Origin: Acidobacteriota bacterium
Lineage (GTDB): Bacteria > Acidobacteriota > Vicinamibacteria > Fen-336
Reading direction: 5' to 3'
DNA: 47,042 nucleotides
Assembly: GCA_031369785.1 (NCBI GenBank)
Contig: JANMPI010000510.1
Location: 1-47,042 of the forward strand
How positions within the stretch are numbered: the stretch's first letter is position 1; every line of letters starts with the position of its first letter. This document shows, in pieces, positions 20,925-39,152 of the stretch. A program made the translations under genes and the position numbers. Under the pieces are notes generated by a model. It searched no databases and was not told where the DNA came from. It worked only from the letters and a program-made list of their open reading frames with translations.

Positions 20925-20991
20925 GAATTAACGCAGCGGCGACCCCTCGTCAAGCCCATTTGCGCGAAGAAGCAAAAATGAGGCCTTCACC

Positions 20992-21639: not shown

Positions 21640-21641
21640 GG

Positions 21642-22409
21642 TCAGCGACCGTCTTCCAGCGGCAGCTCCACCTCGACCAGGGTTCCGGCCCCCGGGGCCG
21701 TCCGCAGCTCGAACCGCCCGCCGAAGAGGTCCACGCGGTCGCGCATCCCGCGCAGCCCGCCTCCGTGCTGGTCCTCCCGGGCCGCGAGCGCCGGCCCGGG
21801 GTCGAATCCCCGCCCCTGGTCCCGGACGCTCAGGAAAAGCCGGTCCCGCTCCCGGCGCACGCGGACCTCCGCCGACGCGGCGGCGGCGTGCTTGGCGGCA
21901 TTGGTGAGCGCCTCCTGGACTAGGCGGTAGACGATGGTCTCCAGGTCGGGCCCGACGCGCTCCTCCATGCCCTCGATGGAGAGCTGGACGCCCAGACCCG
22001 TTCCTTCCTGGAGCGTCCGCGCCAGCCAGCGCAGGGTCGGCACCAGGCCAAGCTCGTCGAGCATCTGCGGGCGCAGGAGGCGGGAGAGCTGGCGGACGTC
22101 CTGCAGGGAGCGGTCCGCGATCTGCGTAAGCTCGGCCAGACGGGCTCGCAGCACCCCGTGGTCCGTCGCCGATCGCTCCAGGATCTCGAGCTGCATCTTG
22201 AGCGCAGTCAGGGACTGGCCCACGCCGTCGTGCAGCTCACGGGAGATTCGCCCCCGCTCCACTTCCTGGATCCGCAGGATGCCGCGCGCGATGAGGCGGA
22301 AGCGCTTCTCGCCCTGAGTCAGGCGGTCGAGCAGCCGGGCGTTCTCGGCGGTGATGCGGGCCACATCGCGGGCAAAAGCCTGCTGGCCATCCACCGTCTC
22401 GTCGCTCAC
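21642..22409 (-). CDS. Soluble HisKA_3-type sensor histidine kinase without a recognisable input domain
   Basis: H-box RISRELHDGVGQSLTALKMQLE, N-box EALTNAAKHA, G1 DQGRGFD and G2 GGLRGMRDRV..GG. There is no TM segment. The GTG at 22409 overlaps the TGA of the upstream kinase gene (GTGA). The ATG at 22448 listed in the track would give a 43-nt overlap. Confidence 0.88.
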   Translation of the reverse strand: MSDETVDGQQAFARDVARITAENARLLDRLTQGEKRFRLIARGILRIQEVERGRISRELHDGVGQSLTALKMQLEILERSATDHGVLRARLAELTQIADRSLQDVRQLSRLLRPQMLDELGLVPTLRWLARTLQEGTGLGVQLSIEGMEERVGPDLETIVYRLVQEALTNAAKHAAAASAEVRVRRERDRLFLSVRDQGRGFDPGPALAAREDQHGGGLRGMRDRVDLFGGRFELRTAPGAGTLVEVELPLEDGR

Positions 22410-25400
22410 GGGCGGGCCGTGGTGCGCGCCGCTGATTCCCGCACCCACGGGATGGCGTCGAAGGAGGCGCGGACGTCCGTGGCCATGCCTTCGCGCAACC
22501 GTGCGATCCCGCGCGCCGTCTCCTCGTACTCCCGCGCCGCGGCGGAGGCATCCCCTCTTTTTGCGAGGACCACGCCCAGGAGGGCGTGGAGCCGGGAGAG
22601 TCCCGCCTCAAAACCGTGCCGGCTCGCGGCGGTGAGGGCACGGCGGGCCATCTCTTCGGCCTCGACGAGATGGCCGCGCGCGAGCTGGGCGCGGGTCATC
22701 GCTTCCGCGGCGCGGATACGCAGCATGACGTCTCCCAGTGCGTCGGCCTCCCGCTGCAGGGGACGCAATTGCAAGGTGGCCGCCGCCGCATCGCCGACCG
22801 CGACGAGAACGGCCGCCTGCGCGATGCGGGCACGGAGATACGCGGCCCGGCTGTTGCTCCCACGCGCCTGCTCGACCGCGCGCGCGAGGGCGCGCCGGGC
22901 ATCATCCCCCGCCCCCTGCCGAGCGTGCCATTCGCCGAGGACGACATGGTAATCGGCGGACTGCTCGCGATTGCCGGTCTCGCGCACCCAGGCCTCGGCG
23001 CGGGTGAGCCCCGCCCGTGCCTCGTCCAGCCGCCCGAGCTCCAGCAGCGCGGCCGACTGCTTGATGGTGAATTCGGCCAGCCCCCGCTTGTCTCCCAGGC
23101 CCTCGAGCACGGCGAGGGCCTCGCCGAAGGAGGCGAGCGCCGCCCCGTACCGCCCTTCATATTGCTGAAGCAGCCCCATGTTTCCCAGGGAGACAGCGGT
23201 CGCGTTCTTGTAGTCGATCTCGCGGCTGTCTTCCAGGGCTTTCGCAAAGGCCTTCAGCGCCTCGCCCCAGCGCCCCTGCACAATGTGGAGGAATCCCAGG
23301 TTCTGCGTAGACAGGACGATCCCGGCCTTCTCCCCGAGCTTCCGCCGGAGGTCGAGAGATTGCTTCCAATACACGAAGGCGTTGTCGTACTCGCCCTCCA
23401 CGAAGAATATGTAGCCGACGTTGTCGTAGCTCTGCGCCATCTGGCGCTCGTCTCCCATGTTGCGCCGGACCTTGAGCGCGTCCTGGTACGCCTTCAGCGC
23501 CTGCCCGAACTCGCCCCGGTTCTCGTGCACGAGGCCGAAGTCGTTCAGGACATCGGCGAGCCCGGCCCGGTCGCCGATTTTTTCCGCGATGCGGCGCGCC
23601 TCCTTCAGGTCAGGCTCCGCGGCGGCGAGGTTGCCCATCGAAATGTGCATCCGCGCCCGGTTCTTGAGGCTGGTCGCCACCCCGCGCTCGTCCCCGAGGC
23701 GCTGGCGGATGGCCGCGGCGGCGGAGTACTTCTCGATCGCCTGCGGGTAGTCCCCCAGTTGGTGGTACGCCACGCCCATCGCGTTCAGCACCTCGGCCTG
23801 CCCCTGCTCGTTGTGGAGCTGGCCGTGCAGGGCCAGCGCCCTCACGAGATGATCCTTCACCGCACGGCCGGCGTTTCCCATGAGGATGGTGTTCTTCCCC
23901 AGCAGGAACCACACGCGGGGGTCGCTGCGGTCGAGCTGCGACGCTTTTTCAAGGGTTGCCACGGCCCGGGCCACGTCGCCCTGACTCGCCTGCGCCGAAG
24001 CGAGATCGAGCAGCGCCTCGAGGTCGTTGGGGAAGCGGCGGGCCAGCTCGACGTAGCTCTTCTCCGCTTCCGCGGGCTCGCCGCGGAGGAGGGCCACGCG
24101 TGCCCGGATGCGATATCCAAGGCGTGCTTCGCTCGCTCCGGCGGCCCGGGCGGCGCGCTCCGCGACGGCAAGGGCCTTTTCTTCGTAGCCCAGGTTCTGG
24201 TAGGTCTCGGCCAGGCGCTCCAGGGCCACGGCGAATTCCGGGTCGGCGGCGACCGCCTTCTCCAGGGCAGGAGCGGCCGACACGTATTCCCCCCGGGCCA
24301 GGAGATCGCGGCCCTCCTGGTAGGCCCGGGCCGCGGCCAGCGAGGTCGTCTCCGGGAGCGCGGCCGCCGCCCGCGCCGCCTGCTCCGCGCCGAGATCGCG
24401 CCGCAGCCGATCGCCCAGGGCGTCCACCATGCGAAAGAGACCGTCATCCCCGGTGGACTCGTCGCCGAAATGACGCGTCTCCATCACCCCCGAGGGACTC
24501 ACCGCGACCAGCCGCAGGTCAATCCGCACGGTGGAGCCCGCCTTGCGCACGCTGCCGGCCACCAGGCGGTCGACCTCAAGCGTCTCCGCCAGTTGCCGCA
24601 GGGCGCGCTCGTCCTGCGTCCGGCCCAGCTTCAGATCACGCAGCGAATGGAAGACCCGCTGCGCGTCGAGCACACGAAGGGCGGGGCTCTCCGAGAGACC
24701 GGCAGCCAGCATCTCGGGGATGCCGGTCCCGGCCCAGTCGAGGTCGGGGTCCGCGGTCTCGACGTTCAGGGGGAGGACGGCAACCGAGTGCAGGGCCGCC
24801 ACCGGGGGCGCGGACGGCGACGGCAATCCGCCGGGCGGCGCAGGGCCCCGATTCCGCTGCGCGCCCCAGATTCCGGCCGCGGCGAGCACTGCGACGCACG
24901 CGGCCAGCCAGTACTGACGGCGGATCGCCGGCGTCCGCACGGCCCGCCGATCGAGGTCCGCGACCAGGTCGCGCGCGGACTGGTAACGACGGGAAGGGCT
25001 CCGTTCCAGGCACCGCGCAATCGCGGCGCGCACGTAGGCGGGGACCGCGATTCCCGTCTCGCGGATGTCGCGGGCGCGTCCGCCGATGCGCTGGGCGAGG
25101 ATCTCGGCCTGGGACTCGCCGGGAAAGGGCAGTTGCCCGGTGAGGATCTCGTAGAAAAGGATGCCGAGGGCGTAGACGTCGCTGCGGCCGTCGATCGCCT
25201 CCCCCGCCACCTGCTCCGGCGAGAGGTAATCGGGCGTTCCCACCACGGCCCCGGTGCGGGTGAGCCCCTCGCGGCCGAGGGAGCGGGCGACGCCGAAGTC
25301 CGTGACATAGGCGGTGTCATCCGCCTCGACCAGGACATTGGCGGGCTTGAGGTCGCGATGGACGACCCCGGCGTCGTGCGCCTGCTGCAGGGCTTCCGCG

Positions 25401-25810
25401 ACTTGGCGGACGATCCGTTCCGCGCGCGCAACGGGCAAGGAGCCCTCCGCGCGCAGGACCTCGAGCAACGAGCGCCCCTCCACGTAACGCATGGTCAGGA
25501 AGCGCAGGCCCTGGTCCTCGCCGATGTCGTGGATGCGCACGACGTTGCGATGCGTGACCTGCCGCGCCAGCACCAGCTCGCGCCGGAAACGCGCGATCCA
25601 GTCGGGATCGGCGCCCAGGTCCGGCCGCAGGACCTTGAGCGCGACATCCTCGTCCAGCTCGAGGTCGCGGGCCTTGTAGACGACACCCATGCCCCCGATG
25701 CCCGCGGTCGCGATCACACGGTAGCGGCCGGCGACGACGGCCCCGGGGGCCAGCTGGCGCGCCATGTCCACGCTGGTGTCGGTGTCCTTCAAGGGCGGGC
25801 GGGCGCCCAC
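22406..25810 (-). CDS. Hanks-type Ser/Thr protein kinase with one TM helix and a very long extracytoplasmic TPR region
   Basis: GIGGMGVVYKA, VALKV, HRDLKPANVL, DFGVAR and GTPDYLSPE. The TM helix is YWLAACVAVLAAAGIWGA at about residues 300-317. It is followed by a VAVLPLNVETADPDLDWAGTGIPEML-type module and about 700 aa of TPR-like repeats. The start is GTG 25810 or ATG 25765. Confidence 0.9.
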   Translation of the reverse strand: MGARPPLKDTDTSVDMARQLAPGAVVAGRYRVIATAGIGGMGVVYKARDLELDEDVALKVLRPDLGADPDWIARFRRELVLARQVTHRNVVRIHDIGEDQGLRFLTMRYVEGRSLLEVLRAEGSLPVARAERIVRQVAEALQQAHDAGVVHRDLKPANVLVEADDTAYVTDFGVARSLGREGLTRTGAVVGTPDYLSPEQVAGEAIDGRSDVYALGILFYEILTGQLPFPGESQAEILAQRIGGRARDIRETGIAVPAYVRAAIARCLERSPSRRYQSARDLVADLDRRAVRTPAIRRQYWLAACVAVLAAAGIWGAQRNRGPAPPGGLPSPSAPPVAALHSVAVLPLNVETADPDLDWAGTGIPEMLAAGLSESPALRVLDAQRVFHSLRDLKLGRTQDERALRQLAETLEVDRLVAGSVRKAGSTVRIDLRLVAVSPSGVMETRHFGDESTGDDGLFRMVDALGDRLRRDLGAEQAARAAAALPETTSLAAARAYQEGRDLLARGEYVSAAPALEKAVAADPEFAVALERLAETYQNLGYEEKALAVAERAARAAGASEARLGYRIRARVALLRGEPAEAEKSYVELARRFPNDLEALLDLASAQASQGDVARAVATLEKASQLDRSDPRVWFLLGKNTILMGNAGRAVKDHLVRALALHGQLHNEQGQAEVLNAMGVAYHQLGDYPQAIEKYSAAAAIRQRLGDERGVATSLKNRARMHISMGNLAAAEPDLKEARRIAEKIGDRAGLADVLNDFGLVHENRGEFGQALKAYQDALKVRRNMGDERQMAQSYDNVGYIFFVEGEYDNAFVYWKQSLDLRRKLGEKAGIVLSTQNLGFLHIVQGRWGEALKAFAKALEDSREIDYKNATAVSLGNMGLLQQYEGRYGAALASFGEALAVLEGLGDKRGLAEFTIKQSAALLELGRLDEARAGLTRAEAWVRETGNREQSADYHVVLGEWHARQGAGDDARRALARAVEQARGSNSRAAYLRARIAQAAVLVAVGDAAAATLQLRPLQREADALGDVMLRIRAAEAMTRAQLARGHLVEAEEMARRALTAASRHGFEAGLSRLHALLGVVLAKRGDASAAAREYEETARGIARLREGMATDVRASFDAIPWVRESAARTTARP

Positions 25811-25815
25811 GCGCG

Positions 25816-26766
25816 TCAGAGCGCCGGCGGATCGAGGGCGAGGCGCGGCGGGGAGGGCTCGTGCGCGCGGAGCGCGAGCGATCCGATGCGCTGCTGCAAC
25901 TCCTCGACCGAAGCGCTGGTGCGGGACGGGCGCGCCTGGAGCTCGGCGATCCGCCGCTCCAGCTGCAGGCCGCCAATGACCAGCGCCGTGTGCTCGGCGA
26001 GGGCTTCCAGGATCTCCAGGTCCAGGTCCGTGAAGCCGCCGCCGGCCGTGGTGCTGTCCACGTAGAGGATGCCGAGCAGGCGGTCGTCCTGGAGCAATGG
26101 CACGCAGGCCAGGACCCCCAGGCGCATCTCCACCACGCTCGCCCGCGCGCCCAGCAGCGGATGGCGCTGGGCATCGGAGACGACGACGCTGGCATGGGTC
26201 TCCACCGCGTGCCGCAGGGCCCCGACGCTGCCCGTGAACCCGTCGTCCCGCACCTGGCCGGGAGCGAACCCGGCCGCGACCTCCGCGTGCAGCCGCCCGT
26301 CGGCGCCCGCGATCAGGACGAACCCCCGCTCGGCGCCCGTGGCCCCGAGGGCGGATTCCAGGAGCCGCAGCAGCAAGTCGAAGGTGTCCAGATCGGCGTT
26401 CAACCTGCGCTTGAGCTCGATGCTGGTGTGGAGCCGCGCGAGGCGCTGTCCCGAAAGGGCGCGCGCCTCATCCTCCGTGATGCGGTCGAAGCGGCCGAGG
26501 AGGCCGCCAAAGCTCAACCACTCTCCGCCCTCCAGGCGTCGGCCGGAGACGGCCATCCCGTTCACGGAGGAGCCGTTCTTGCTGCCGGCGTCTTCGAGAG
26601 TCCACCCGTCGCTCCAGACCAGCCGCGCGTGCTGTTTCGACACCCGGCCATCCTCGATCACCAGCCCGCATTCGGGATCGCGCCCGATGGTCAGGCTTTC
26701 TCCGTCACCGATCACGATGAACCTGGCCGGCCGGTGCGGGGGATGAAGTGTCAGCTTGGCGGGCAT
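25816..26766 (-). CDS. FHA domain - GAF domain protein
   Basis: The ATG at 26766 (MPAKLTLHPP) is the chosen start. FHA motif: LTIGRDPECGLVIEDGRVSKQHARLVWSDGWTLEDAGSKNGSSVNG. GAF-like motif: GAERGFVLIAGADGRLH...LGILYVDS. The upstream 26767-26901 part of the listed ORF looks non-coding. Confidence 0.85.
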   Translation of the reverse strand: MPAKLTLHPPHRPARFIVIGDGESLTIGRDPECGLVIEDGRVSKQHARLVWSDGWTLEDAGSKNGSSVNGMAVSGRRLEGGEWLSFGGLLGRFDRITEDEARALSGQRLARLHTSIELKRRLNADLDTFDLLLRLLESALGATGAERGFVLIAGADGRLHAEVAAGFAPGQVRDDGFTGSVGALRHAVETHASVVVSDAQRHPLLGARASVVEMRLGVLACVPLLQDDRLLGILYVDSTTAGGGFTDLDLEILEALAEHTALVIGGLQLERRIAELQARPSRTSASVEELQQRIGSLALRAHEPSPPRLALDPPAL

Positions 26767-26774
26767 CGGCGTGG

Positions 26775-26799
26775 CCCTTCCACGCGTTCTCGGGAAGGG
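26775..26799 (-). promoter_or_regulatory. 7-bp stem hairpin whose 3' arm contains the SD-like GGAAGGG of the FHA-GAF gene
   Basis: The minus strand reads CCCTTCC-cgagaacgcgt-GGAAGGG-ccacgccg-ATG. The arms are perfectly complementary. The purine-rich arm lies 8 nt upstream of the ATG at 26766. Confidence 0.35.
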
Positions 26800-26875
26800 A
26801 AGCGGTCCCGGGAGTTCAGCGTATGAAGGATCTTCGCCCCTGCCCCCGGGGGAGTCAAGACAGCCCCAAAAGGAG

Positions 26876-26908
26876 CGCTCGCGTGGACCCGGAAGGCCCA
26901 CGCGAGCG
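26876..26908 (-). terminator. Intrinsic-terminator-like hairpin downstream of metalloprotease 1
   Basis: Perfect 11-bp inverted repeat CGCTCGCGTGG / CCACGCGAGCG with an 11-nt loop. It lies 27 nt after the TAG at 26938-26936. On the minus strand it is followed by CTCCTTTTGGGG (a T4 tract). Confidence 0.6.
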
Positions 26909-26935
26909 GGGTACGACCCGGGCGACGGTGCGACG

Positions 26936-29900
26936 CTACTGGTTCAGCACCGTGCGCGCGATGCTGATCTCGATGGAGAACGCTCCGGGGACGTTCAGCA
27001 CCTGCACCCGGTAGACGCCCGGAGCCGACACCGGCTTGTCCAGGCCGGAGACGGTGAGGCCCGGGATCAACGCTTCACCGGTGGCGATCAGGTTGCCCGC
27101 GGGGTCGAGGAGCCGCACCGTCAGCGGCACAGCACTTCCGGTCACGACCACGGAGACGTCCCGGTCGAGCGAGCCTACGTTGACCGTCCGCTCGACGACC
27201 GGCCCCTCGCTCGACGAAGCCGTGCTCGTGGTGGTGACCGACCCGGATTCCGCGGCGGCGGGATTGGGCCCGCTCCCCGCGCACCCGAAGGCGAAGCCGT
27301 CCACGGTCACCACGCCCGTCCGGTGAACGAGCTTGAACTCGTGCGCGGCCAGGGTGAGGCCGGAGTAGGTGAGGCGGTGCCCGAAGGTCGGCGATCCGCT
27401 GCCGCTGGCATAGGACACCGTGCCCCGGAGGATGCCGTCGATGAAGACGTCCGCCGTCCCCGCCGCGGGCGTGATCACGAAGAAGTAGGTGATCGACGTG
27501 GCATTGAAGACGACGCGCGCGGTGGGGGTGCCGGACCCGTTGTTTGTCCCCGTGCGCTCCTGATAGCGGCCGTTGGAGGCGCGCACGTCCGTCTTCCGAT
27601 GCCAGCCGTTCTTGTACTCGACCGCGCGGTCGCCTTCGTCGATGGAGACGCAGTTCTCGTTGACCGTCACCGTGACGTTGGCGGGGTCGGTGCCGCCCCG
27701 CCCGTCGGAGTTCGTGTACGTGAACGTGTCGGCGCCGATGAAGTTCGCGTCCGGGGTGTAGGTGACGGTGCTGCCGTTGGTCGTGGCGGTTCCGTTGGGC
27801 GGATCGCCGACCGCGGTGACGGTCAGGGGGTCGCCGTCGGGGTCGCTGTCGTTCCCGAGCACGTTCACCGTGACCGGGGTGTTCACGATGGTGGTGGCGG
27901 TGTCGTCCACCGCGTCGGGGGCGGCGTTGCAGATGTCGGACTGCTGGTCGGGGCCCTGGAGCAGGACGTTGGTGAGCCGGACCTGGTCGAACTGCAGTCC
28001 TTCGAGGGACTGCAGGGCATCCGAGCCGTAGGCCACCTCGATCTGCACGGGCTGGCCGGCGTAGCCCGCGGCTCCCAGGGCGGTCGCGCTCCAGGTGCTC
28101 TCCGCCCACGGATTGGCCGGCTGGGTTGCGGAAGTCGCCCACCCGGGGCCGTTGTTGCAGCCGGTGTAGGAGTTGGCCGCGTTGTAGAGCCGCCCGCCGC
28201 TCGGGTTGACGATCGTCGTCTGCCCCTGCGCGTTGACGATCCCCACGTTGCCGCGGTCGTAGAACGGCGTCGCGGGCGTCTCGGGCTCGGTGGCGAACTG
28301 GTTGTAGAGCGACAGGGTCGAGCTCGCGGTGAGCCGCACCTTCGGCGATCGCGCGCGGTCGCAGGCGTTGTCCGCCCCGGAGGACGACTTCAGGTAGAAG
28401 GCGCTGCCGTCTGCTCCCGGCGGCGGGAGGTTGGTGCGGTCGAAGGTCCCCGAGAACGTCGTCCAGCCCTGAGCTCCGCTCTCGAAGTCGAAAATCGCGT
28501 TCCCGAGCACGAGGTCGGTCTCGGTATCGCGCACGGTGAGGATTCCCGTGGCCATGACGGGGCCGCCGGGGCTGTCGGCCTCCACCGCGACGTTGAAGGT
28601 CAAGGTGGACTGGGAAGCCAGGCCTCCCGCGCGGAAGCGGAAGGTCGCGGGCCCCGTCGAGTTGGCGCCTCCGCATCCGGCGCCCAGCGACCCCACGACG
28701 ATGGGCAGGGTGGTGAGGATCGACGTCTGCCCGCTGGACGGCTGGATCGCCGTGACGCGCACGTTGGTCAGGTTCATGCCGCCGGTGTTCACGACGTTGA
28801 AGGTCAGGCCCGCGATCTCGCAGTTGTCCACGAACGGATCGCCGTCGCCGGTCTCGATGACGGGACTCGCGCCTTTATCTTCGACCGCGACGCCGGGGCC
28901 GGTGAGGATGCCCGGCGCGAGCGGCGTGACCATGGCGCAGGCGCTCATGGGCCCGGCGCAGGATTCGGCGGGGACGCCCAGCGCGCCGCCCACGGCCACC
29001 ACGCTGTAGTAGTAGGTGAGCCCGTCGAGGAGGTCGCTCTGGGTGAAGGTGAAGCTGCCCGCGGCGGCCGGCACCTCGGCGACGCGGGTCTTGCCGAAGT
29101 CGCATCCGTGAACGCCGTCCGTCCGCAGCACCCAGTACTCGGCCGCGCCGGGAACGGCGGGCCAGGTGACGGTCGCGCTCTGCACGCCGGCGGTGGCCGT
29201 GACCGTGGGGGCGGTGATCGGGGCCGGAGTGGCCACGCAGCCCAGGTTCATCGGAAGCGGCGCGCCGCAGGCGATGCCGTGGCGGCTGAAGGCGTCGTGG
29301 ATGGCCACCATGTGCGGCGTGCCGTTGCCGATGGCGCCGTCGTCGTCGTCCGCAGCCAGGAAGTTCAGGTACCAGCTGTCCGCGTTGCACCCGCCGAGGG
29401 CGACGTCGCAGGTGTAGCCGAAGGTCACCCCGCCCGCGGCGCGGTAGAACAGCCGCGTGGTGAGGACCAGCGACGAATTGTCGTCCATGAAGCGGGGCAG
29501 GGCGTTCGTGCACCGGCCGCCGGCCACTGTCCCCGAGGCGTGGCTCTCCCACCGGCGCGTGTGACAGGGCAGGTCACGCTTGAGGAGGTCCCACACCGAC
29601 TCGCCGATGATCGTTCCCTCGCAGTGGGTCGAGCGGCCGCAGGGGCCGCCGCCCAGGGCGGGGGTGGGCGGATTGAGAACGGGGCAGCCGCCCGGGATGG
29701 TGGGGTTCTGCCCCAGCACCCAGGCGAGGTCGTGCGGCCGCTGCGACTGGCGCTTCTTCCAATCATCCTCGCGGACGCCGGTGCACTCCGTGCACGGGTC
29801 GCCGTTACCGCCGCAGGTGCCCGTGGTGTAGAAGCCCCGGCCGATGCACGAGGTGTTCAGCCGGAAGATGGCCGCCATGTCCGCGTACGCCTCGCCGGGG

Positions 29901-31426
29901 GAGCTGACTCCCGGGTGGTCGTCGAAGTGGTCGAGCCCGTGCCCCCACTCGTGGTCGAAGACGGCCGCGATCTCGCCCGTATTGCGGCACCGGCCGCTGT
30001 TGGGCGACGCCGAGACCTCGCGATAGAAGTTGATGGAACCGGTGGCGGGATTGGCGGTATCCGCAAAGCTGAAGAACGCGTTGCACGAGTTGTTGATGTT
30101 CATGTTGGCCGGGAGCTGGCGGTTGAGCCATTGCCTGGACACAGCACCGGGGCCCAGCCAGCTCTTGGCCTGGTCGATGATGCGGTTCACTTCGTAGAAG
30201 CCCGTGCGCGCGGAGTGGGTGTCCCCCGCGGAGTGGCCGGGGGGCACGGCGCAGTCGGTGCCGGCGCTCATCCCGAGGTCCAGGGCCGGGCAGGCGGTGG
30301 ACTCGTTGATGATGCCGCAGTTGTCCACGATCTTGACGAAGGGACCGGTCAGGTCCGTGCGGAACTGCCCGCTCACCGGCACGAGGCCCTCGCTGTTGGA
30401 CGTCAGCCGCGTGCTGTCCTGCTTGAACACGTAGGCGCGGGACATCGGGTATCCGGGCTGCTCGACGCCGTCCGGGATTCCGCCCGGCGAGGCGCCGTCG
30501 TTGCTCACGGGGAAGATGCCGCCCACGACCTTCTTATGGTCCATGTACTGGTTGGTGTCGGCAAAGGCGAGGAGATCGCCGTCGTGAGCGTCGACCAGGC
30601 CCTCCCAGCCGCCGAGGCTTCCATTCACCTGCGGGCCGACGGCCCAGGCCAGGCGATAGCGGTACCCGCTGCCCTCGATCGAGGCACTGCCGTCGCCGCC
30701 GGCCATGGGCAGCAGCACCAGCTGCGCGCGGCGCCAACTCGCGATCGTGAAGCCCGACAGGTGGCGCGCCACCACGGCCTGGGCCTGCGATGCGGACAGG
30801 CGCGGGGTGGTGGAAACGTCGACCGCACCCCAGCTCTGTGTCCCATACAGGACGAGGTTGCCGTGGTTGATCGTCGCCTTGACGAAGCTCCGCCGCACGG
30901 GAACTCCGTTCACCACCCGATCGACGTTGATGTGCACGAGGCCGCCGTTGTCGTAGCTGCCGATGCTCGGCGGGCCCAGCTCCGCCGCGTCGATGCCCAG
31001 CTGCGCCCGGTGCGCGGCCAAGTAACCGCGGAACGCCTGCCACACCGCGTCCTTGTACGCGGCGTCGCCGGTCGGAGCGCCCAGACCCAGTCCCTGCCAG
31101 GTGAGCCGGTTGCCCACCCCGGTTCCGGGAACGACCGGAGCCGCAGGAAGCAACGTACCCCACCGCCCGCCGCGCACGTCGTAGAAGCCGAGCGCGCCCG
31201 CGACTCCCAGCGTGTCGAGCTGCGGGCCCAGGCGAGCGGCCATCTCCGGGGGAAGCTTCGCGATGGGCTGATGGACGTTGCGGAGGTAGAGCCCATCAAC
31301 CTCGAAGGAGAGCGCCGCGACGGGATCGCCCTCGGGGGGGACCGCCGCCCCGGCCAGGGCGGGCAGGAGCATCAGTGCGCCCACGACCAGGCGTCGAGTC
31401 CGGTTCTGCGCGCTTGACTTCATCAT
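26936..31426 (-). CDS. Giant secreted multidomain zinc metalloprotease (gluzincin, FTP/PepSY-type propeptide, M36/M4-like HEWGH core), paralog 1
   Basis: The ATG pair at 31426/31423 is preceded by GAGGAG. Signal peptide: [28 protein letters not shown]. The HEWGH motif is encoded at 29953-29939, followed by PGEAYAD (candidate third zinc-ligand Glu). The core is Cys-rich. Further modules: FN3-like ([21 protein letters not shown]), cadherin/VCBS-like ([18 protein letters not shown]...[12 protein letters not shown]) and a PPC-like C-terminus. Confidence 0.8.
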
Positions 31427-31491
31427 GCTCTCCTCGGTGGACGCTCGATGGCGTCGCAGACAGGTGTCTGTTTTGACGGCGCGATGCGCGG

Positions 31492-34400
31492 TCACTGCGG
31501 GCAGCCCACGACCTCGTAGCTCCCGCCGGCCACCAGGCTGTCCGGCATGTTGTCGGGCGTGAGGGCGCTACCGTCCGGGCTCTCGATGCGGATGCGGCTC
31601 AGAAAAGCCGTCAGCTTCTGCCCGACCTGGGGGTTGCCGATCGCGCTTCCCGACACGACGATGCGGATCGTTCCGTCGGCGCTGAAGCTGCTCCCAGGGT
31701 CCGCCGGCGTTCCCGGGGCGGTGTAGGGAGTCACGGTGGCGCCGTTGCCATGCGCGAACGCGGGGGGGTTGGTAGGGAGCACGTTCGCCGTATTCATGCG
31801 CACGAACCGCACCGCCCCGTCCGCCCCCGTGTAGGAGATGGGCCAGGTCGTCGCCTGCGGAACCGAGGCCAGGCTCGTCATCTTCAGGATGAAGACGAGC
31901 TTGCCGTCCGCAGTCTGCGCGATGGCCGCGCTGCGAACGTCGTGGCCGGGTCCTGTGCTGGCGTCGCCGACAGGGTCGGTGAGCACGGTGAAGCCCTCCG
32001 CGCAGGGATCGCCGGCCACGGTCAAGGTGACGCGGCCGGTGTCGGATCCGCCCCGGCCATCGCTGATCACGTAGTCAAAGGTGTCGACGCCCTCGAAGCC
32101 GGCCGGGGGCGTGTAGGTGACTCGGCTGTCGGGGTTGAGCACCGCCTGCCCGAAAGCAGGGGCGCTCACGCTCGTCACCACCAGCGCGTCGTTATCGGGG
32201 TCGGTGTCGTTGCCGGCGACGGCGACGGTGTTGGGGTGATTGCGCGGAACGGAGATGGCGTCGTCCACCGCGGTGGGCGGCTGGTTCGCCGGAGCCTGGC
32301 ATGCCCCGGGGGTCCCGCTCGGCGGGAGCGGCGTGATCGCCGCGCAGTCGCTCATCGGGCCCGCGCACGCATCGGCCCCAATGCCCGCGGGGACGAGGCC
32401 GCCCACGGGGAGGACGCTGTAGTAGTAAGTCAGCCCGTCGAGGAGGTCGCCCTGGGCAAAGGTCCGGGGCGCCGTGGCGGCGATGCGCGCCATGCGCGTC
32501 TTGCCGAAGTTGCAGCCGTGGATCCCGTCCGTGCGCAGGATCCAGTATTCGGCCGCGCCGGGCACGGCGCTCCAGGCGATGCTCGCGCTGCGCGGACCGG
32601 CGGATCCCGTCACCACCGGCTTGGCGGGCGGCGCGGGAGTGGCCAGGCAGCCGCCGTTGAGCGGCGCCGGGGCCCGGCAGGCGAGCCCATGACGCCGGAA
32701 GGCGTCGTTGATGGCGAGCATGTGGGGCGTCCCGTTGGCGAAGGTGCCGTCGTCGTCGTCCGCGGCGAGGAAGCTCATGTACCAGCTGTCCGCGTTGCAG
32801 CCGCCGTTGCGCGCCGCCCCGGTTCCCGGCGCCTGGTCGCACTGATAACCCAGCGCGACGCCGCCCGCGGCCAGGTAGTAAAGCCGCGTCCCGAGCACCA
32901 GGGCCGTGTCCGCATCCATGGTCGGGGCGGCGTTCGCACCGCGACAGCGGCCACCTGCGATGGGGCCGTTGCCGCCCGGGAACGGCGCCTCCCATCCCCG
33001 TGTGTGGCACGGAAGGTCCCGCTTCAGGAGATCCCAGAAGGCCTCGCCCAGGATCGTGCCCTCGCAGTGCGTGCCACGCTGGCAGGGGCCGGAGTTGAAC
33101 GGCGTGGCGGGGACGAGGACGGCCCCGCAGTTCCCCGGCACCGTCGGGTTCTGGTCCAGCACCCAGGCCAGGTCGTGGGGCATCCTCGACTCGCGCTTCA
33201 TCCAGTCGTCCTCGCGCACGCCCGTGCACTCGGTGCAGGGGTCGCCGTTGCCGGTGCAGCGGCCGCCGATCACGTTGTTCAGATAGAACCCGCGGCCGAT
33301 GCACGACGTGTTCAGGCGGGCGATGGCGGCCGCGTCGGCGTAGAACTCGCCGGGCAGGCTGACCCCCGGAGAGTCGTCAAAGGTGTCGAGACCGTGACCC
33401 CATTCGTGGTCGAAAACGGCCGCGATCTCGCCCGTGTTGCGGCAGGTGTTGGAACCCAGGGCGCCCTGCCGGTAGAAGTTGATGGAGCCGGTGCTTACTG
33501 CCGCGGTGTCGGTGGGCGAGAAGAACGCGTTGCAGGCGTTGTTGATGTTCATGTTGGCGGGGAGCTGGCGGTTGAGCCATCCCGCCGGGGTGTTCGCGGT
33601 GGCCTCCGGGCCGAGCCAGGTCTTGGCCTGGTCGATGAGGCGATTCAGCTCGTAGAACCCGGTTCGCGCGGAACGCGTGTCGCCCAGGGAGTGACCGTCG
33701 GGGCGCGCGCAATCCGTCCCCTGGCCGATGCCGAGGTCGAGGGCGTCGCAGGTCGTCGTCTCGTTGACCGCACCGCAGCCGTCCTGGATGCGGACGAAAG
33801 GGCCGGTGAGGCTGGTGCGGTAGGCGCCGCTCGCGGTGACCAGGCCCTCGCTATTGGCCTGGATCCGCGTCGTGCCCTGGAACACGTAGGCCCGCGACAT
33901 CGGATAGCCGGGCTGCTCGAAGCCGTCGGGCACTCCGCCGGGGGATTGACCGTCGTTGCTCACGGGAAGCACCCCGCCCACGATCTTCTTCTGGTCGAAG
34001 TAGGAGTTGGTGTCGTGGAACGACAGCAGCTCGCCGCTATGGGCGTCCACCAACGCCTCCCACGAGCCCTGGCTCCCATCGACCCGCGCGGCGATCGCCC
34101 AGGCCAGCCGGTACGTGTACCCGCGGCCCACCGCGGCCGTGGCGGTAGCACCGCTGGCCATGGGAAGGATGACGAGCGCGGGTTCGCCGAAATGGGCGAC
34201 GGTGAGTCCCTTCAGATGGCGGGCCACGAGGCCGCGTGCGTCATCCGCGGAGAGTCCCGGAGTGGCCGCGACATCGATCGCGCCCCAGTTCCGCGCCACG
34301 TACAGGACGAGGTTGCCGCTGTTCAGGGTGGCCTTCACGAAGCTGTCGCGGACTGGGATCCCTTCATGCACGCGACCGGCATGAACGTGCACCAGCCGGT

Positions 34401-34878
34401 TGCCCTCGTGGGCGCCGATGGTCGGCGGGGCGAGCTCCGCCACGTCGACGCCGAGCTCGGCTTCGTGCGTTTCCAGCCAGGCCGTGAACGCCTGCCACAC
34501 CGCCTCCTTGTACGCGGCGGCGTCGGCGGGCGGGGCGGCCGCCCAGCCGAGCGTGTTGCCCACTCCCGGCCCCGGAACCAATGGAGTGGCCGTGATCAGC
34601 GAACCCCAGCGCCCGGCGCGGACGTCGTACCCTCCCGCTTCGCCCTCCACGGAGAGCGCGGAGAGGTCGTCGCGCAGCTTCCGGTTCAGCTCGTCCGGCA
34701 GTTGATCGAGGGACAAGTGGACGGCGCGGACGAACAGGTCGCGGTGCCCGGTCACACGCCGTTCGACGCGATCGCCCTCGGGCGGGACGGCCGCGACGGC
34801 GTCTCGCGCGGGAAGCAGTAGAGCGACGACGAAGGAAGCGCAAACGAGCGCGATCGCGCCACGAGCCGTCGTGTTCAT
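31492..34878 (-). CDS. Giant secreted multidomain zinc metalloprotease, paralog 2
   Basis: The ATG at 34878 is preceded by GGAGG 8 nt upstream on the minus strand. Signal peptide: [29 protein letters not shown]. The HEWGH motif is encoded at 33408-33394. It is colinear with paralog 1 through the propeptide, catalytic, Cys-rich, FN3 and cadherin-like parts. The C-terminus differs. Confidence 0.8.
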
Positions 34879-35008
34879 GCGGTGAGCCTCCATGACCGCA
34901 AGACTAGGCAACCGCACGCGCACCCGACAATGAGGGAACCGCCTCAGAAAAGGGTGAGAAGGCAACTCATTTTTCGGGCGTGGCCGGAGCCCGTGCTAAG
35001 TTCGCGCG

Positions 35009-36712
35009 GTGAGAGACGGGTTGCGGGTGATCGCCATCGTGCCGGCCCGCGGCGGCACCGATCCTGTCCCGTACCTGAACATCAAGCGCCTCGGCGACTG
35101 CCCGCTGCTCGCGCACACCCTGACCGCGGCCCGCGATGCGCCGTCGGTCGACCGCGTGGTGGTGACGACGGACGACGCGCGGGTGGCCGAGGTCGCGAAG
35201 AGCTACGGCGCCGACGTGCCGTTCCTGCGCCCGCCCGATCTCGCCGCCGATCTGCCCAGCCTGAAGCCGGTCATCGTGCACGCCGTGGCCGAGCTCGAAA
35301 GGGCCGGCGAGCACGCCGACGTCATCGTCATCCTGCAGGCCACGACGCCGTTCCGCGAGGCGGAGGCCATCGAGTCCGCGATCTCCACGCTTCTGGAGGG
35401 CGCCTTCGACACCGTGGTCTCGGTGACCAAGGACCGGACGCTCAACTGGCGCGCCGCGGACGGCCTGCTGCGGCCTCTCTTCGAGAAGGAAGGCCGGCGC
35501 GAGGAGCAGGAGCCGATCTACCGCGAGAACGGCGCGGTGGTGGCGCTGCGCCGGGGCGTGCTCGACTCCGCCTCGCGGTTCGGGGACCGTGTCGGCTACG
35601 TGGTCCTCGACAAGCGCGCCGGGTTCACCGTCTACGACCTCGAGGACTTCTGGATGGCGGAGCGCCTGCTGCGCCAGCCGCGCGTGCTCTTCCGCGTCGA
35701 CGGCAGCACGGGGATGGGCCTGGGCCACGTCTACCGCTCGCTCGCCATCGCCGATGCTCTGCGCCAGCTGAGCCGGGCCGATATCGCGTTCCTGATGAGC
35801 GCGGATCACCCGGAGGGGCTGATCACCGTCTCGCGCCGCGGCTATCCGGTGCGCGTGGTGGGCGACGGCCGGCTCGACAACTACCTCGAGCACATCCGGG
35901 ACTTCTCGCCCGAGATTCTGATCAACGACCTGCCCACGGTTGAGGCCGCCTACATGCGAGCGCTCAGCCACGTCGGCGCGACCACCGTGAACCTCGTCGA
36001 CACCCCGGAGGACCTGGAGACCGCGGAGCACTACGAGCAGGTCATCGTCTCCGTGATGAGCCAGGACCGCGAGACGCCGGAAGGCTTCTACGCCGGTCCC
36101 GCCTACGCGATCCTGCGCGAGCAGTTCCGCGGGCGGGCCAAGGACGTGCGGCAGAGGCCGCGCACGGTGCTGCTGAGCTTCGGGGGCAGCGACCCGCAGG
36201 GGCTCACCCTGAAGGCGGCGCGGGCGCTCGACGCCCTCGATGGATCGATCGAAGTGGTGGCGGTCGCGGGGGCCGCGTTCTCGTATCGCGCCGAGCTCGC
36301 CGCCCTCGTCCCCACGCTGCGGCGGCCGCTGCGGGTGATCAACGACGCCGGCGGGCACATCTCGGAGCTGATGCTGGAGGCAGACCTGATGGTGGGATCG
36401 GGCGGCATGTCGGTGTACGAGATCGCGGCCCTCGGAACGCCCGGGGTCATCCTGGGCCAGAACGTGCGCGAGGACCGCCGCATGCGCGAGTTCGCGCGAC
36501 ATGGGACGGTCCACTATCTCGGCCTCGGTTCCGAGGTCGCGGAGGCGGAGATCGCCACTGCGGTGACGGCGCTGCTGCGCGACTTCCCGGGCCGTCGGGC
36601 GATGAGCGAGCGCGGCCGGGCTCTCGTGGACGGGCTCGGCGCCTCGCGGGCGGCGGAGGCGGTGCTCGAGCGCCGCAAGGTCCCGCGCGCGGCGGAGATG
36701 GCCAAAAAGTGA
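35009..36712 (+). CDS. Fusion protein: N-terminal CMP-nonulosonate (NeuA/PseF-type) cytidylyltransferase + C-terminal PseG/SpsG-like UDP-sugar hydrolase (GT28-like) domain
   Basis: N-terminal part: VIAIVPARGGTDPVPYLNIKRLGDCPLLAHTL..VVVTTDD (CTP_transf_3 pattern). C-terminal part: VLFRVDGSTGMGLGHVYRSLAIADAL and VLLSFGGSDPQG..GGMSVYEIAALGTPGVIL (PseG pattern). GTG start at 35009. 567 aa in one frame. Confidence 0.75.
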   Translation: MRDGLRVIAIVPARGGTDPVPYLNIKRLGDCPLLAHTLTAARDAPSVDRVVVTTDDARVAEVAKSYGADVPFLRPPDLAADLPSLKPVIVHAVAELERAGEHADVIVILQATTPFREAEAIESAISTLLEGAFDTVVSVTKDRTLNWRAADGLLRPLFEKEGRREEQEPIYRENGAVVALRRGVLDSASRFGDRVGYVVLDKRAGFTVYDLEDFWMAERLLRQPRVLFRVDGSTGMGLGHVYRSLAIADALRQLSRADIAFLMSADHPEGLITVSRRGYPVRVVGDGRLDNYLEHIRDFSPEILINDLPTVEAAYMRALSHVGATTVNLVDTPEDLETAEHYEQVIVSVMSQDRETPEGFYAGPAYAILREQFRGRAKDVRQRPRTVLLSFGGSDPQGLTLKAARALDALDGSIEVVAVAGAAFSYRAELAALVPTLRRPLRVINDAGGHISELMLEADLMVGSGGMSVYEIAALGTPGVILGQNVREDRRMREFARHGTVHYLGLGSEVAEAEIATAVTALLRDFPGRRAMSERGRALVDGLGASRAAEAVLERRKVPRAAEMAKK

Positions 36713-37686
36713 AGGCACTGCTGACGGGGGGCGCCGGGTTCGTGGGCAGCCATCTCGCGGAGGCGCTCCTCGCCCGCGGGGACACCGTCCACGTCCTCGA
36801 CAACCTCTCGACCGGGTCGATGGACAACATCGGCCACCTGAAGGGGCGCGAGCGCTTCCACTACATCGTCGACACGGTGATGAACGAGCGCGTGGTGGCG
36901 GAGGCGGTGGACCGCGTCGACGTCGTCTACCACCTCGCGGCCGCGGTGGGCGTAAAGCTCATCGTCGAGAGCCCCGTGAACACCATCGAGACCAACGTGC
37001 ACGGCACGGAGATGGTGCTGAAGGTGGCGAGCAAGAAGAAGAAGAAGGTCCTGATCGCCTCGACGTCGGAGGTCTACGGGAAAAGCGAGGACGTCCCGTT
37101 CCGGGAGGACGCCGACCTCGTCCTCGGCGCCACCACCAAGGGGCGCTGGAGCTACGCCTGCAGCAAGGCCATCGACGAGTTCCTGGCCCTCGCCTACTGG
37201 AAGGAGAAGGGGCTGCCCGTGGTCGTCTTCCGCCTCTTCAACACCGTGGGGCCGCGGCAGACCGGCCGCTACGGGATGGTCATCCCCAACTTCGTGAAGC
37301 AGGCGGTGCAGGGAGAGCCCATTACCGTCTACGGCGACGGCACGCAGAGCCGCTGCTTCACCTACGTGAGCGACGTGGTCGAGGCGCTGGTCAAGCTGGC
37401 CGAGCACCCGGCCGCGGTCGGGCAGGTGATCAACATCGGCAACGATCACGAGGAGATCTCCATCCTCGATCTCGCCCGGCGGGTGAAGGAGCGCACGCGC
37501 TCGGCGAGCCCGATCGAGATGGTGCCGTACGACAAGGCCTACGAAGAAGGCTTCGAGGACATGCCGCGCCGCGTGCCCGATCTCACCAAGGTCAGGGCGC
37601 TCCTCGGGTACGAGCCGAAGGTGCACCTCGACGAGATCCTGGACCGCGTGGCCGAGTACTTCACGTCGGACCGGGCGCGGGTTTGA
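36709..37686 (+). CDS. Extended-SDR sugar-nucleotide dehydratase/decarboxylase/epimerase, ArnA-C-terminal/UXS-like
   Basis: MKALLTGGAGFVGSHL. The canonical YxxxK sits in an ArnA-like context, RWSYACSKAIDE. FNTVGPRQ is also present. GTGA overlap at 36709. Confidence 0.85.
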   Translation: MKALLTGGAGFVGSHLAEALLARGDTVHVLDNLSTGSMDNIGHLKGRERFHYIVDTVMNERVVAEAVDRVDVVYHLAAAVGVKLIVESPVNTIETNVHGTEMVLKVASKKKKKVLIASTSEVYGKSEDVPFREDADLVLGATTKGRWSYACSKAIDEFLALAYWKEKGLPVVVFRLFNTVGPRQTGRYGMVIPNFVKQAVQGEPITVYGDGTQSRCFTYVSDVVEALVKLAEHPAAVGQVINIGNDHEEISILDLARRVKERTRSASPIEMVPYDKAYEEGFEDMPRRVPDLTKVRALLGYEPKVHLDEILDRVAEYFTSDRARV

Positions 37687-39152
37687 CCGGGGACCGCACC
37701 TCCCTCCTCCGCCACCTCGGCAAGCTCGCCTCGCACTCGGCGGTCTACGGGCTCGCCGACGTCTTCACCACCGTCGTCAACCTCCTCCTCATCCCGCTGT
37801 ACACGACGTACCTCGGCGCCACCGAGTACGGGCACCTCGCCCTCCTGATGCTGTTCTCGACCGCGGCCAAGATCCTCTTCCGCCTCGGCCTCGACGCGGG
37901 CTTCTTCCGCGTGCACTACGACATGACCAGCGACTCGGAGCGGCGGACCCTGGCCGGCACGGTGGCGCTCTTCGCCGCGGGCGCTTCGACGGTGCTGATG
38001 GGGCTGGTGCTCGTCCTCCGCGGCCCGCTCACGCGGGCCTTTCTCGGCGCGGGGATCCCGGAGAGCTGGATCGTCCTCGCCGCTTCGGACGTGTACCTCG
38101 GCACCTTCGCGTTCGTGCCGCTCAGCCTGCTGCGCATCCAGGACCGGCCGCAGCTCTTCTCGGCGCTCTCCGTGGTGCGGCACACCGTGAACATCACGCT
38201 CAAGGTCGTCCTGGTGAGCCGCGGGCTGGGCATCTCCGGGATCCTGTGGGCGGACGTCGCCGCCACCGCCGCCTTCGCGCTCGTGCTGCTGCCCATCCTG
38301 GTGAAGAACGCGGCCGCCGCCTTCTCGATGCCGCTGCTGCGCGATGTGCTCACCTTTGCCCTGCCCAAGGTGCCGCACGGGGTGATGCTGCAGGTCCTGA
38401 ACCTCGCCGACCGCAAGATCCTCGATCTCTTCGTCACCCGCGCCGAGGTCGGCGTCTACCAGATGGGCTACACGTTCGGGGGCGGGGTGAAGTTCGCGAT
38501 GTCCGCCTTCGAGCCCGCGTGGGGGCCGTTCGTCTATGCGCGGGCGCGGGAGGAAGGCGGCGCTTCGACCCTGGCGCGGGTCGCGACCTACGCGTTCGCG
38601 GCCTTTGCCGCCGCCGCGCTCGCCGTGGCCGCCCTCGGGCCCGATCTCCTGCGCCTCATGACCCCGCGCAATCCGGCGTTCCATGCCGCGGCTCCGATCA
38701 TCCCCGTCATCGCACTCGCGTACCTGCTGCACGGCGTGTTCCTGCTGACGTCGGTCGGTATCGGGATCGCCCGCCAGGCGCGGTACTACCCGATGGTCAC
38801 GGGCGCCGCCGCGGCCACGAACGTCGCCGCGAACTTCGCACTCATCCCGCGCTTCGGCGCCATGGGCGCGGCCTGGGCCACCGTCCTCGCCTACGCGGTG
38901 ATGGCGGGCCTCGGTCACGTCTTCTCGCGGCGGGTGTTCCCGATCCCCTTCGAGGGATCGCGGCTGCTGCGGATCGCGGCCGCGGCCGCCGGGGCCTATG
39001 CGCTGTCCACCCTTGTCGGCGGCGCGGGGACCGCGGCGGCGAGCGCGCGGGCCCTGACCCTGATCGCGTTCCCCGTCCTTGCCCTCGCCCTGGGTGTCCT
39101 CCGTACCGACGAGTCACAACGGCTCCGGCGTATATTCGGAGCGAGGGTCTGA
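37683..39152 (+). CDS. Wzx-like oligosaccharide flippase (MOP/polysaccharide biosynthesis protein family)
   Basis: 489 aa with about 12-14 TM segments. The N-terminus HSAVYGLADVFTTVVNLLLIPLYTTYLGATEYG is typical of PST-family flippases. TTGA overlap at 37683. Confidence 0.8.
   Translation: MTGDRTSLLRHLGKLASHSAVYGLADVFTTVVNLLLIPLYTTYLGATEYGHLALLMLFSTAAKILFRLGLDAGFFRVHYDMTSDSERRTLAGTVALFAAGASTVLMGLVLVLRGPLTRAFLGAGIPESWIVLAASDVYLGTFAFVPLSLLRIQDRPQLFSALSVVRHTVNITLKVVLVSRGLGISGILWADVAATAAFALVLLPILVKNAAAAFSMPLLRDVLTFALPKVPHGVMLQVLNLADRKILDLFVTRAEVGVYQMGYTFGGGVKFAMSAFEPAWGPFVYARAREEGGASTLARVATYAFAAFAAAALAVAALGPDLLRLMTPRNPAFHAAAPIIPVIALAYLLHGVFLLTSVGIGIARQARYYPMVTGAAAATNVAANFALIPRFGAMGAAWATVLAYAVMAGLGHVFSRRVFPIPFEGSRLLRIAAAAAGAYALSTLVGGAGTAAASARALTLIAFPVLALALGVLRTDESQRLRRIFGARV

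Follow-up and report, generated by a model that had tools for sequence, protein, structure and literature searches.

A conserved fusion of a PseG/SpsG-like domain to a cytidylyltransferase domain with replaced catalytic residues in surface-glycan gene clusters of Acidobacteriota

Introduction

Nonulosonic acids, among them sialic, legionaminic and pseudaminic acid, decorate bacterial surfaces, and their pathways are routinely annotated automatically. The enzymes PseF/NeuA and PseG/SpsG and their gene neighborhood are already well known, and the locus described here represents no new class or type of system. In Campylobacter jejuni, PseF and PseG are separate proteins. The gene pairs pseF/pseG (Cj1311/Cj1312), rkpN/rkpO and flmC/flmD carry consecutive locus tags or names, from which we infer that pseF-type and pseG-type genes are neighbors in classical clusters. 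In Bacillus subtilis, spsE-spsF-spsG have been proposed to make cytidine monophosphate (CMP)-legionaminic acid for the spore crust from uridine diphosphate (UDP)-linked precursors, the roles of UDP-sugar hydrolase and cytidylyltransferase being assigned to SpsG and SpsF, respectively (PMC7439481). Here we analyze a gene on contig JANMPI010000510.1 of a metagenome-assembled genome (MAG) from the Vicinamibacteria (Acidobacteriota; GCA_031369785.1) that joins a NeuA/PseF-like domain and a PseG/SpsG-like domain in one polypeptide; we call the whole stretch of DNA analyzed, 47,042 nucleotides, the window.

The original prediction, made from these letters alone, read the gene as a fusion of two enzymes of the pseudaminic acid pathway and raised the possibility of a metabolon. 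Our analysis suggests a different division of labor, in which the C-terminal domain looks like a functional hydrolase of the PseG/SpsG type, the N-terminal domain is a conserved synthetase fold whose catalytic residues have been replaced, and the activating cytidylyltransferase is probably a separate protein encoded in the same cluster.

Results

The gene starts with GTG and continues without interruption over 567 amino acids, with a GC content at the three codon positions (0.74/0.47/0.93) that is typical of genuine genes in this window of ~71% GC. The Pfam model CTP_transf_3 (PF02348) matches residues 8-141 with 67.5 bits (cut-off 22.6), the PseF model TIGR03584 matches residues 8-220 with 110 bits, below its equivalog cut-off of 205.7, and the PseG model TIGR03590 matches residues 225-481. 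The original prediction is thus upheld in its coordinates, in describing one uninterrupted frame with a domain boundary near residue 225 (VLFRVDGSTGMGLGH...) and in assigning the halves to a CTP_transf_3-type and a PseG-like domain, with the qualification that both halves score below the PseF and PseG equivalog cut-offs. Neither a stop nor a frameshift, which it had suggested looking for, was found at the junction: the AlphaFold2 model has a mean predicted local distance difference test (pLDDT) score of 88.1 and stays between 81 and 90 over the junction residues 201-240, and full-length homologs occur in hundreds of assemblies. Uniform coding signal, these homologs and the confident junction model together rule out a sequencing artefact there.

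The N-terminal domain retains its fold. Among solved structures it matches CMP-sialate and CMP-pseudaminate synthetases (9ftb at 4e-21, 1eyr at 3e-17), and Foldseek superposes it on 6ifd, 9t4z, 9ftc and 1eyr with target-normalized template modeling (TM) scores of 0.82-0.88, so that the synthetase fold is intact. What has changed is the active site. In an alignment of 113 full-length family representatives with the window fusion, the family consensus reads PARGGSKGIPRKN ... LQPTSP ... DIDTxxDW and the window fusion PARGGTDPVPYLN ... LQATTP ... TVYDLEDF. Residues were mapped through HMMER alignments to the Neisseria meningitidis CMP-sialate synthetase (NmCNS, 1eyr numbering): R12, N22, R71, Q104 and R165 of NmCNS fall on R14, N24, R74, Q110 and R164 of the fusion, and K16, K21, D209 and D211 fall on D18, L23, T207 and Y209. 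K16 and K21 touch the alpha- and beta-phosphates of cytidine triphosphate (CTP), the E. coli CMAS variant K16A being attenuated and K21A without activity, while the cytosine base is recognized by R71 and the hydroxyls of the ribose by N22 (PMC6580227); mutagenesis data and roles for D209/D211, the Mg2+-binding Asp pair, are given in PMC2901514. Mutation of K16, K21, D209 and D211 cripples or abolishes CMP-N-acetylneuraminic acid (CMP-NeuAc) synthetase (PMC2901514, PMC6580227).

The same replacements mark the close clade of the window fusion. In a table of 61 full-length clade members, each from a different species, no canonical residue is found at any of the four positions: the K16 position is D, H or P, the K21 position L, M or I with no Lys at all, the D209 position T, A or S, and the D211 position H, Y or R. 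The equivalents of R12, N22, R71, Q104, T106 and R165 are kept in all 61. In fusions with an intact site, the positions of K21, D209 and D211 are K, D and D in 95/95. Mean pairwise identity among the 61 clade members is 62.6% for the N-domain and 59.4% for the C-domain, the N-domain being the more similar half in 80% of 1,830 pairs, and 50 of its 222 positions are at least 97% conserved; these figures indicate that the N-domain is not decaying and is under purifying selection. Because it is these mutagenesis-sensitive residues that are replaced, the fusion probably does not join two catalytic steps, and the N-half, which the original prediction took for a CMP-nonulosonate synthetase, is unlikely to be a working one. 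Loss of phosphate and Mg2+ catalysis, retention of nucleoside and sugar recognition, and maintained selection are the pattern expected of a ligand-binding pseudoenzyme and not of a working cytidylyltransferase. Moreover, the charge reversal from K16 to Asp at the beta-phosphate contact would disfavor CTP more than a CMP ester.

For the C-terminal domain the best family is PseG (129.0 bits, E 2.5e-37, model positions 2-266 of 280), and a genome-wide profile search found this half to be the sole PseG-family domain in the genome (131.2 bits). Searched as a single sequence, the C-half matches C. jejuni PseG (3hbm) at E 1.4e-6; with a family profile the E-value is 3.8e-20, compared with 1.3e-8 for MurG; the fusion itself matches neither MurG (TIGR01133) nor Glyco_tran_28_C at E<=0.01 in Pfam or NCBIfam. 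The C-half thus bears out two expectations of the original prediction, a PseG rather than a MurG match at the sequence level and a catalytic histidine: H240 aligns with His17 of C. jejuni PseG, which was reportedly proposed as the catalytic base by Rangarajan et al. (2009). The H240 equivalent is His in 112/114 family representatives and in 121/121 close homologs. Tyr78 of PseG stands opposite a Pro in the pairwise alignment, in a region where that alignment is untrustworthy. No hydrolyzing 2-epimerase of the NeuC type was found above cut-off in the genome, a MAG fragmented into 604 contigs. Since two NeuB synthases need free sugar and no other PseG-type protein or NeuC was found, the C-domain is the sole visible source of it. 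It looks like a functional PseG/SpsG-type hydrolase.

Where, then, would the CMP-sugar be made? A total of 153 loci were sorted by fusion type: the window, 69 loci of the Acidobacteriota clade and of further look-ups, and 80 that a scan of metagenomes with intact-site fusions as seeds had yielded. Their flanks were scanned with hidden Markov models for NeuB and for other CTP_transf_3-type genes. Where the flanking sequence reaches 5 kb or more on both sides, a separate cytidylyltransferase is present in 36 of 42 degenerate-site loci, mostly of the SpsF type, and in 1 of 19 intact-site loci. In 68 of 75 cases the intact-site fusion lies directly beside a single NeuB gene, making a compact two-gene module with three predicted activities. 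Four clade genomes have no local SpsF, and in three of them an SpsF-type gene lies 10-20 kb away or on another contig. In a FastTree phylogeny, whose branch supports are only Shimodaira-Hasegawa-like (SH-like), the window fusion falls into a clade with support 99 of which all seven representatives are degenerate, and at least four further independent site losses are seen (P0150; P0195/P0216/P0225; P0231; P0243). On this tree the catalytic site has been lost independently at least five times in the fusion family.

The surroundings of three of the other losses were examined, and two of these have a separate cytidylyltransferase. The locus of P0225 (L157) has the order DegT - fusion - NeuB - 372-amino-acid gene without Pfam match - CTP_transf_3, the last 2.2 kb downstream, and that of P0231 (L158) the order CTP_transf_3 - NeuB - fusion - NeuB, followed by a sulfatase; L158 thus combines the same components as the cluster of the Vicinamibacteria, with two NeuB genes flanking the fusion and a cytidylyltransferase of its own, but arranges them differently. 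These are unrelated lineages with independent site loss and convergent gene sets. L074 and L076 also carry a separate cytidylyltransferase; both belong to the main clade, as distant members, and do not count as separate losses. In sum, catalytic-site loss tends to accompany another cytidylyltransferase, with exceptions that we weigh below. One degenerate-site locus, L075, likewise a distant member of the main clade, has a B12-binding radical SAM protein, a SPASM radical SAM protein, two sulfotransferases, adenosine 5'-phosphosulfate (APS) kinase, ATP sulfurylase and two DegT, which points to an ulosonic acid that is sulfated or extensively modified in some other way.

The fusion family is large and old, and its members are not rare. 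When 5.8 billion clustered proteins were searched, 565 matches were obtained, of which the best 120 are all full-length (554-587 amino acids, 71-97% identity) and come mostly from MAGs of Vicinamibacteria/Acidobacteria; independent full-length homologs at 70-97% identity number more than 120. An exhaustive HMMER scan of 1.84 billion representatives at 50% identity gave 466 matches at E<=1e-30, more than 100 of them separate clusters of ~530-580 amino acids with both domains in one stretch at 26-53% identity. The close clade is present in ~65 species-representative genomes, all of them Vicinamibacteria, "Ca. Marinacidobacterales" or unclassified Acidobacteriota, and the same uninterrupted architecture recurs in hundreds of independent assemblies. 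The original prediction had held the fusion noteworthy as unusual, which does not survive these numbers. Automated annotation already reflects the fusion of the two domains: many close homologs are named "SpsG / CMP-N-acetylneuraminic acid synthetase", a JGI two-COG name, and one family member is called "NTP transferase domain-containing protein" by NCBI. A literature search in a limited library turned up no paper that describes a PseF-PseG fusion or the subclade with the degenerate site. In two long-read Acidobacteriota MAGs (L065, L067) the homolog is split into several reading-frame fragments, which could be long-read indel errors or real pseudogenes.

In ~50 relatives with sufficient flank the gene order is glycosyltransferase family 9 (GT9) - surface-carbohydrate protein - NeuB1 - SpsF - NeuB2 - fusion - short-chain dehydrogenase/reductase (SDR), then usually Wzx; the end of NeuB2 is often 6 nucleotides from the start of the fusion, and the SDR gene directly follows the fusion in nearly all clade loci. 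In the window, a block encoding a DUF6689 protein, a response regulator, a histidine kinase, a Ser/Thr kinase with TPR repeats, an FHA-GAF protein and two large secreted proteins lies between NeuB2 and the fusion (Table 1); L001 has there a single minus-strand gene of 420 amino acids without Pfam match. Present only in this genome, the block is specific to its lineage and breaks up what is a single cluster. The original prediction made much of the 15 kb between the fusion and the synthase genes; the distance is correct for the window, and it is not meaningful because NeuB2 adjoins the fusion in the ~50 relatives.

Further upstream, the window contains GT2 genes, an SDR+DegT pair and a GT9 gene, and the cluster has other glycosyltransferases besides the TIGR04396/BFO_1060-like protein. 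The latter is a candidate CMP-ulosonic-acid transferase. Proteins of this kind, 560-730 amino acids long and weakly similar to Glyphos_transf, Epimerase_2 or Capsule_synth, stand beside both fusion types (L070, L073, the window). The ATG of NeuB2 overlaps the stop of the SpsF-like gene (ATGA), and a simple listing of reading frames conceals NeuB2 within an in-phase frame of 635 amino acids at 18090-19997 that begins upstream of it. In L042-L067, loci of the "Ca. Marinacidobacterales" type, the Wzx gene does not follow the SDR gene but precedes the cluster, encoded on the opposite strand, and the SDR gene is still directly after the fusion. A Chloroflexota MAG has an unfused arrangement (L068:5366-7265), in which an SpsF-type gene overlaps a stand-alone PseG-like gene whose product is 35% identical to the C-half of the fusion, an order like that of spsF-spsG in B. 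subtilis. A Cu/Zn superoxide dismutase gene follows the flippase gene at 39176-39733, as it does in L001, L004, L006, L013, L014 and other relatives; it is a recurrent and odd neighbor for a glycan cluster.

Table 1. Positions in the window of the fusion gene, its domains and motifs, and the surrounding cluster genes.
Feature	Position	Strand	Evidence or remark
Whole fusion gene, 567 amino acids + stop, NeuA/PseF-like N-half and PseG/SpsG-like C-half	35009..36712	+	Open reading frame, GC at third codon positions (GC3), domain matches, full-length homologs, AlphaFold2 model
N-terminal domain, residues 1-222, cytidylyltransferase fold with catalytic residues replaced	35009..35674	+	CTP_transf_3, PseF, Foldseek, residue table
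Remodelled P-loop, residues 12-26, PARGGTDPVPYLNIK (canonical PARGGSKGIPRKNLR)	35042..35086	+	1eyr alignments, family alignment, clade conservation
Degenerate Mg2+-binding motif, residues 207-213, TVYDLED (canonical DIDTxxD)	35627..35647	+	Alignments, clade table, published mutagenesis (PMC2901514)
C-terminal domain, residues 223-567, PseG/SpsG-family GT-B NDP-sugar hydrolase domain (predicted)	35675..36709	+	TIGR03590, 3hbm, Foldseek
G-L-G-H loop, residues 237-240	35717..35728	+	Aligns to G-F-G-H of C. jejuni PseG; H240 opposite His17
TIGR04396/BFO_1060-like "surface carbohydrate" protein	14931-17117		Candidate transferase
NeuB1, divergent NeuB-family synthase	17138..18169	+	NeuB_NnaB 205 bits
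Stand-alone SpsF-type cytidylyltransferase, Arg/Lys-containing P-loop SARMASSRSPGK	18166..18948	+	Profile matches; conserved beside NeuB genes
NeuB2, more canonical NeuB/LegI-type synthase	18945..19997	+	NeuB_NnaB 347 bits; 82% identity to L001 NeuB2
~15-kb block (signalling operon and two large secreted proteins)	20079..34965	-	Absent from same position in L001 and ~50 other relatives
SDR epimerase/dehydratase, 4-nucleotide overlap with fusion	36709..37686	+	LegB-like 187 bits, UDP-xylose-synthase-like 178 bits; synteny
Wzx-type flippase (Polysacc_synt), overlaps SDR stop	37683..39152	+	Profile matches, synteny

Discussion

The explanation that we favor, with modest confidence in it as a whole, combines a working C-terminal hydrolase with an N-terminal domain that has lost catalysis and still binds a ligand, and leaves activation to the SpsF-type enzyme. 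The fusion would be a conserved two-domain protein of a nonulosonic- or ulosonic-acid surface-glycan cluster. Its C-domain would hydrolyze a nucleoside diphosphate (NDP)-linked, probably UDP-linked, hexose derivative, tailored by the adjacent SDR and perhaps also by DegT and GNAT enzymes of the cluster, and release the free sugar, which NeuB2 and perhaps NeuB1 would condense with phosphoenolpyruvate. The CMP-sugar would then be made by the stand-alone cytidylyltransferase, whose gene lies between those of NeuB1 and NeuB2. Transfer of the activated sugar would fall to the TIGR04396-like protein or other glycosyltransferases, and Wzx would export the lipid-linked glycan. We suppose that the N-domain descends from an active synthetase of the NeuA/PseF type, whose activity most members of the fusion family would have kept, and that in the clade of the window fusion it most likely no longer makes CMP-sugar and probably still binds a cytidine nucleotide or CMP-sugar, serving the hydrolase as a regulatory (product-sensing) module, as a structural or dimerization module, or as both.

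Several of our observations weigh against this explanation and are best considered together with the alternatives. Across the clade, K26, D210 and D213 show high conservation and most members also have H209; these residues could in principle form a non-canonical active site. They belong, with the clade-specific motif GxDxxPYLN(I/A)K, to the case for a truly bifunctional PseG/PseF-type enzyme, whose N-domain would make the CMP-nonulosonate from the NeuB2 product by way of such residues; the intact synthetase fold, the conserved nucleoside and sugar contacts, and the fact that in intact-site fusion-NeuB pairs the N-domain is the only cytidylyltransferase fit it as well. We nevertheless think bifunctionality unlikely, given that all four mutagenesis-sensitive residues are replaced, including a K-to-D charge reversal at the beta-phosphate contact, and that their loss recurs independently and tracks another cytidylyltransferase, as expected of relaxed selection on catalysis. 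The tracking itself is imperfect. No separate cytidylyltransferase was detected in one clade genome (G003), on the 12.6-kb contig carrying P0243 (L159), or within 10 kb of the fusion in L075, where a search of the upstream 684-amino-acid radical-SAM protein for a hidden SpsF-like domain also found none; and the Fisher p of 1.7e-9 for the association is inflated by shared ancestry and is descriptive only. Might the N-domain instead be purely structural, a scaffold for dimerization or stability that neither binds a ligand nor regulates? CMP-sialate synthetases are obligate dimers with a dimerization subdomain, and in the vertebrate enzymes a non-catalytic phosphatase-like domain serves as a tetramerization platform; in the fusion the presumed dimerization region (~residues 135-180) is retained and modeled with good confidence. 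Six ligand-contact residues kept in 61/61 members are hard to explain without a bound ligand, however, and we rate a pure scaffold as rather unlikely.

The C-domain raises a question of its own, for its GT-B fold, with two Rossmann-like domains, does not discriminate here: the target-normalized TM score is 0.74 for PseG (3hbm, root-mean-square deviation 3.8) and 0.75 for MurG, and the PseG match lies below the NCBI equivalog cut-off of 153.55. Hydrolase or transferase has therefore to be judged from sequence and context. It could thus be a GT-B glycosyltransferase to which the N-domain captures and presents a CMP-sugar or another nucleotide sugar; at ~345 amino acids it is longer than the 282-residue chain of C. 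jejuni PseG, and some relatives have a MurG-like C-terminal region, seen as weak murG or PF04101 (Glyco_tran_28_C) matches. Yet the best sequence-level match is clearly PseG, no other enzyme was found in the genome that would free sugar for the two NeuB synthases, the cluster already has the TIGR04396/BFO_1060-like candidate and several other glycosyltransferases, and B. subtilis SpsG, of the same COG, is needed for legionaminic acid synthesis and not merely for transfer (PMC7439481). Transferase function therefore seems to us quite unlikely. As for an assembly or sequencing artefact that joined two adjacent genes, the fragmentation of the MAG is the one thing in its favor, and the recurrence of the architecture in independent assemblies, the uniform coding signal and the confident junction make its probability negligible.

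How could a synthetase domain be conserved after catalysis is lost? Within the explanation that we favor, in which the N-domain still binds a ligand, the most attractive specific idea, though a tentative one, is that it acts as an allosteric sensor of the CMP-nonulosonate end product and feeds back on the fused hydrolase, the step committing nucleotide sugar to the free-sugar branch; such sensors would have arisen at least five times, once a second cytidylyltransferase had made catalysis redundant. The logic would be analogous to that of the inhibition of mammalian GNE by CMP-Neu5Ac and of PseB by CMP-Pse. If the domain of this soluble protein does sense a CMP-sugar, it would be a simple natural case of an enzyme domain recycled as a feedback sensor.

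The bifunctional PseF/PseG metabolon of the original prediction is thus only partly supported. The metabolon argument is unnecessary, because the fused genes are, as we infer from their tags and names, neighbors in classical clusters. Nor can a pseudaminic acid pathway be demonstrated: in addition to NeuC, no PseB ortholog was found above cut-off in this fragmented genome (the best score, 91.7 bits, comes from a fragment at a contig end), and the NeuB/LegI model gives both NeuB paralogs a better score than the PseI model does. We did not adopt the canonical pseudaminic acid pathway for the lack of PseB and for this closeness of the synthases to NeuB/LegI.

More generally, the widespread annotation "SpsG/CMP-NeuAc synthetase" covers two groups of proteins, one with plausibly two active domains and the other with a pseudoenzyme half, as we read its residues. 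The second, degenerate-site group is universal in Vicinamibacteria, abundant soil Acidobacteriota, and recognizing it would correct a plausible mis-annotation across a major soil phylum. Domain matches alone are, in this respect, a poor guide to pathway completeness.

Among known systems, the sps genes of B. subtilis offer a gene set like the present one, in which a NeuB-type synthase, an SpsF-type (COG1861-like) cytidylyltransferase and a GT-B domain of the SpsG/PseG type are encoded together, and in both cases genes for an SDR, an aminotransferase and an acetyltransferase are close by. Unlike B. subtilis SpsG, the SpsG-like domain here carries an extra, degenerate NeuA-like domain at its N-terminus; moreover there are two NeuB paralogs, and the 4,6-dehydratase belongs to a type other than SpsM/PglF. 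The PseG proteins of C. jejuni and Helicobacter pylori (3HBM/3HBN) represent the best family for the C-half, with the His of the GxGH loop aligned to His17, and the N-half has the PseF/NeuA fold and is similar to the Aeromonas caviae CMP-Pse5Ac7Ac synthetase (9ftb/9ftc). In contrast to the C. jejuni pair, whose members are separate proteins, the two are fused here, neither half reaches its equivalog cut-off, PseB was not found, and the PseF-like half is without the catalytic Lys/Lys/Asp/Asp. With the CMP-NeuAc synthetases of N. meningitidis (1EYR), Vibrio cholerae (6IFD) and mouse (1QWJ) the N-domain shares the fold, R71/N22/R12 and Q104/R165, and it differs from them in the replacement of K16, K21, D209 and D211 and in its fusion to a GT-B domain. 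The intact-site CTP_transf_3-PseG fusions share architecture, length and ancestry with the window fusion, have NeuB adjacent, and often have, as the window does, a TIGR04396-like transferase and a flippase nearby; they differ in retaining PARGGSKGIPRKN and DIDT..D and in that a second cytidylyltransferase is usually missing from their surroundings.

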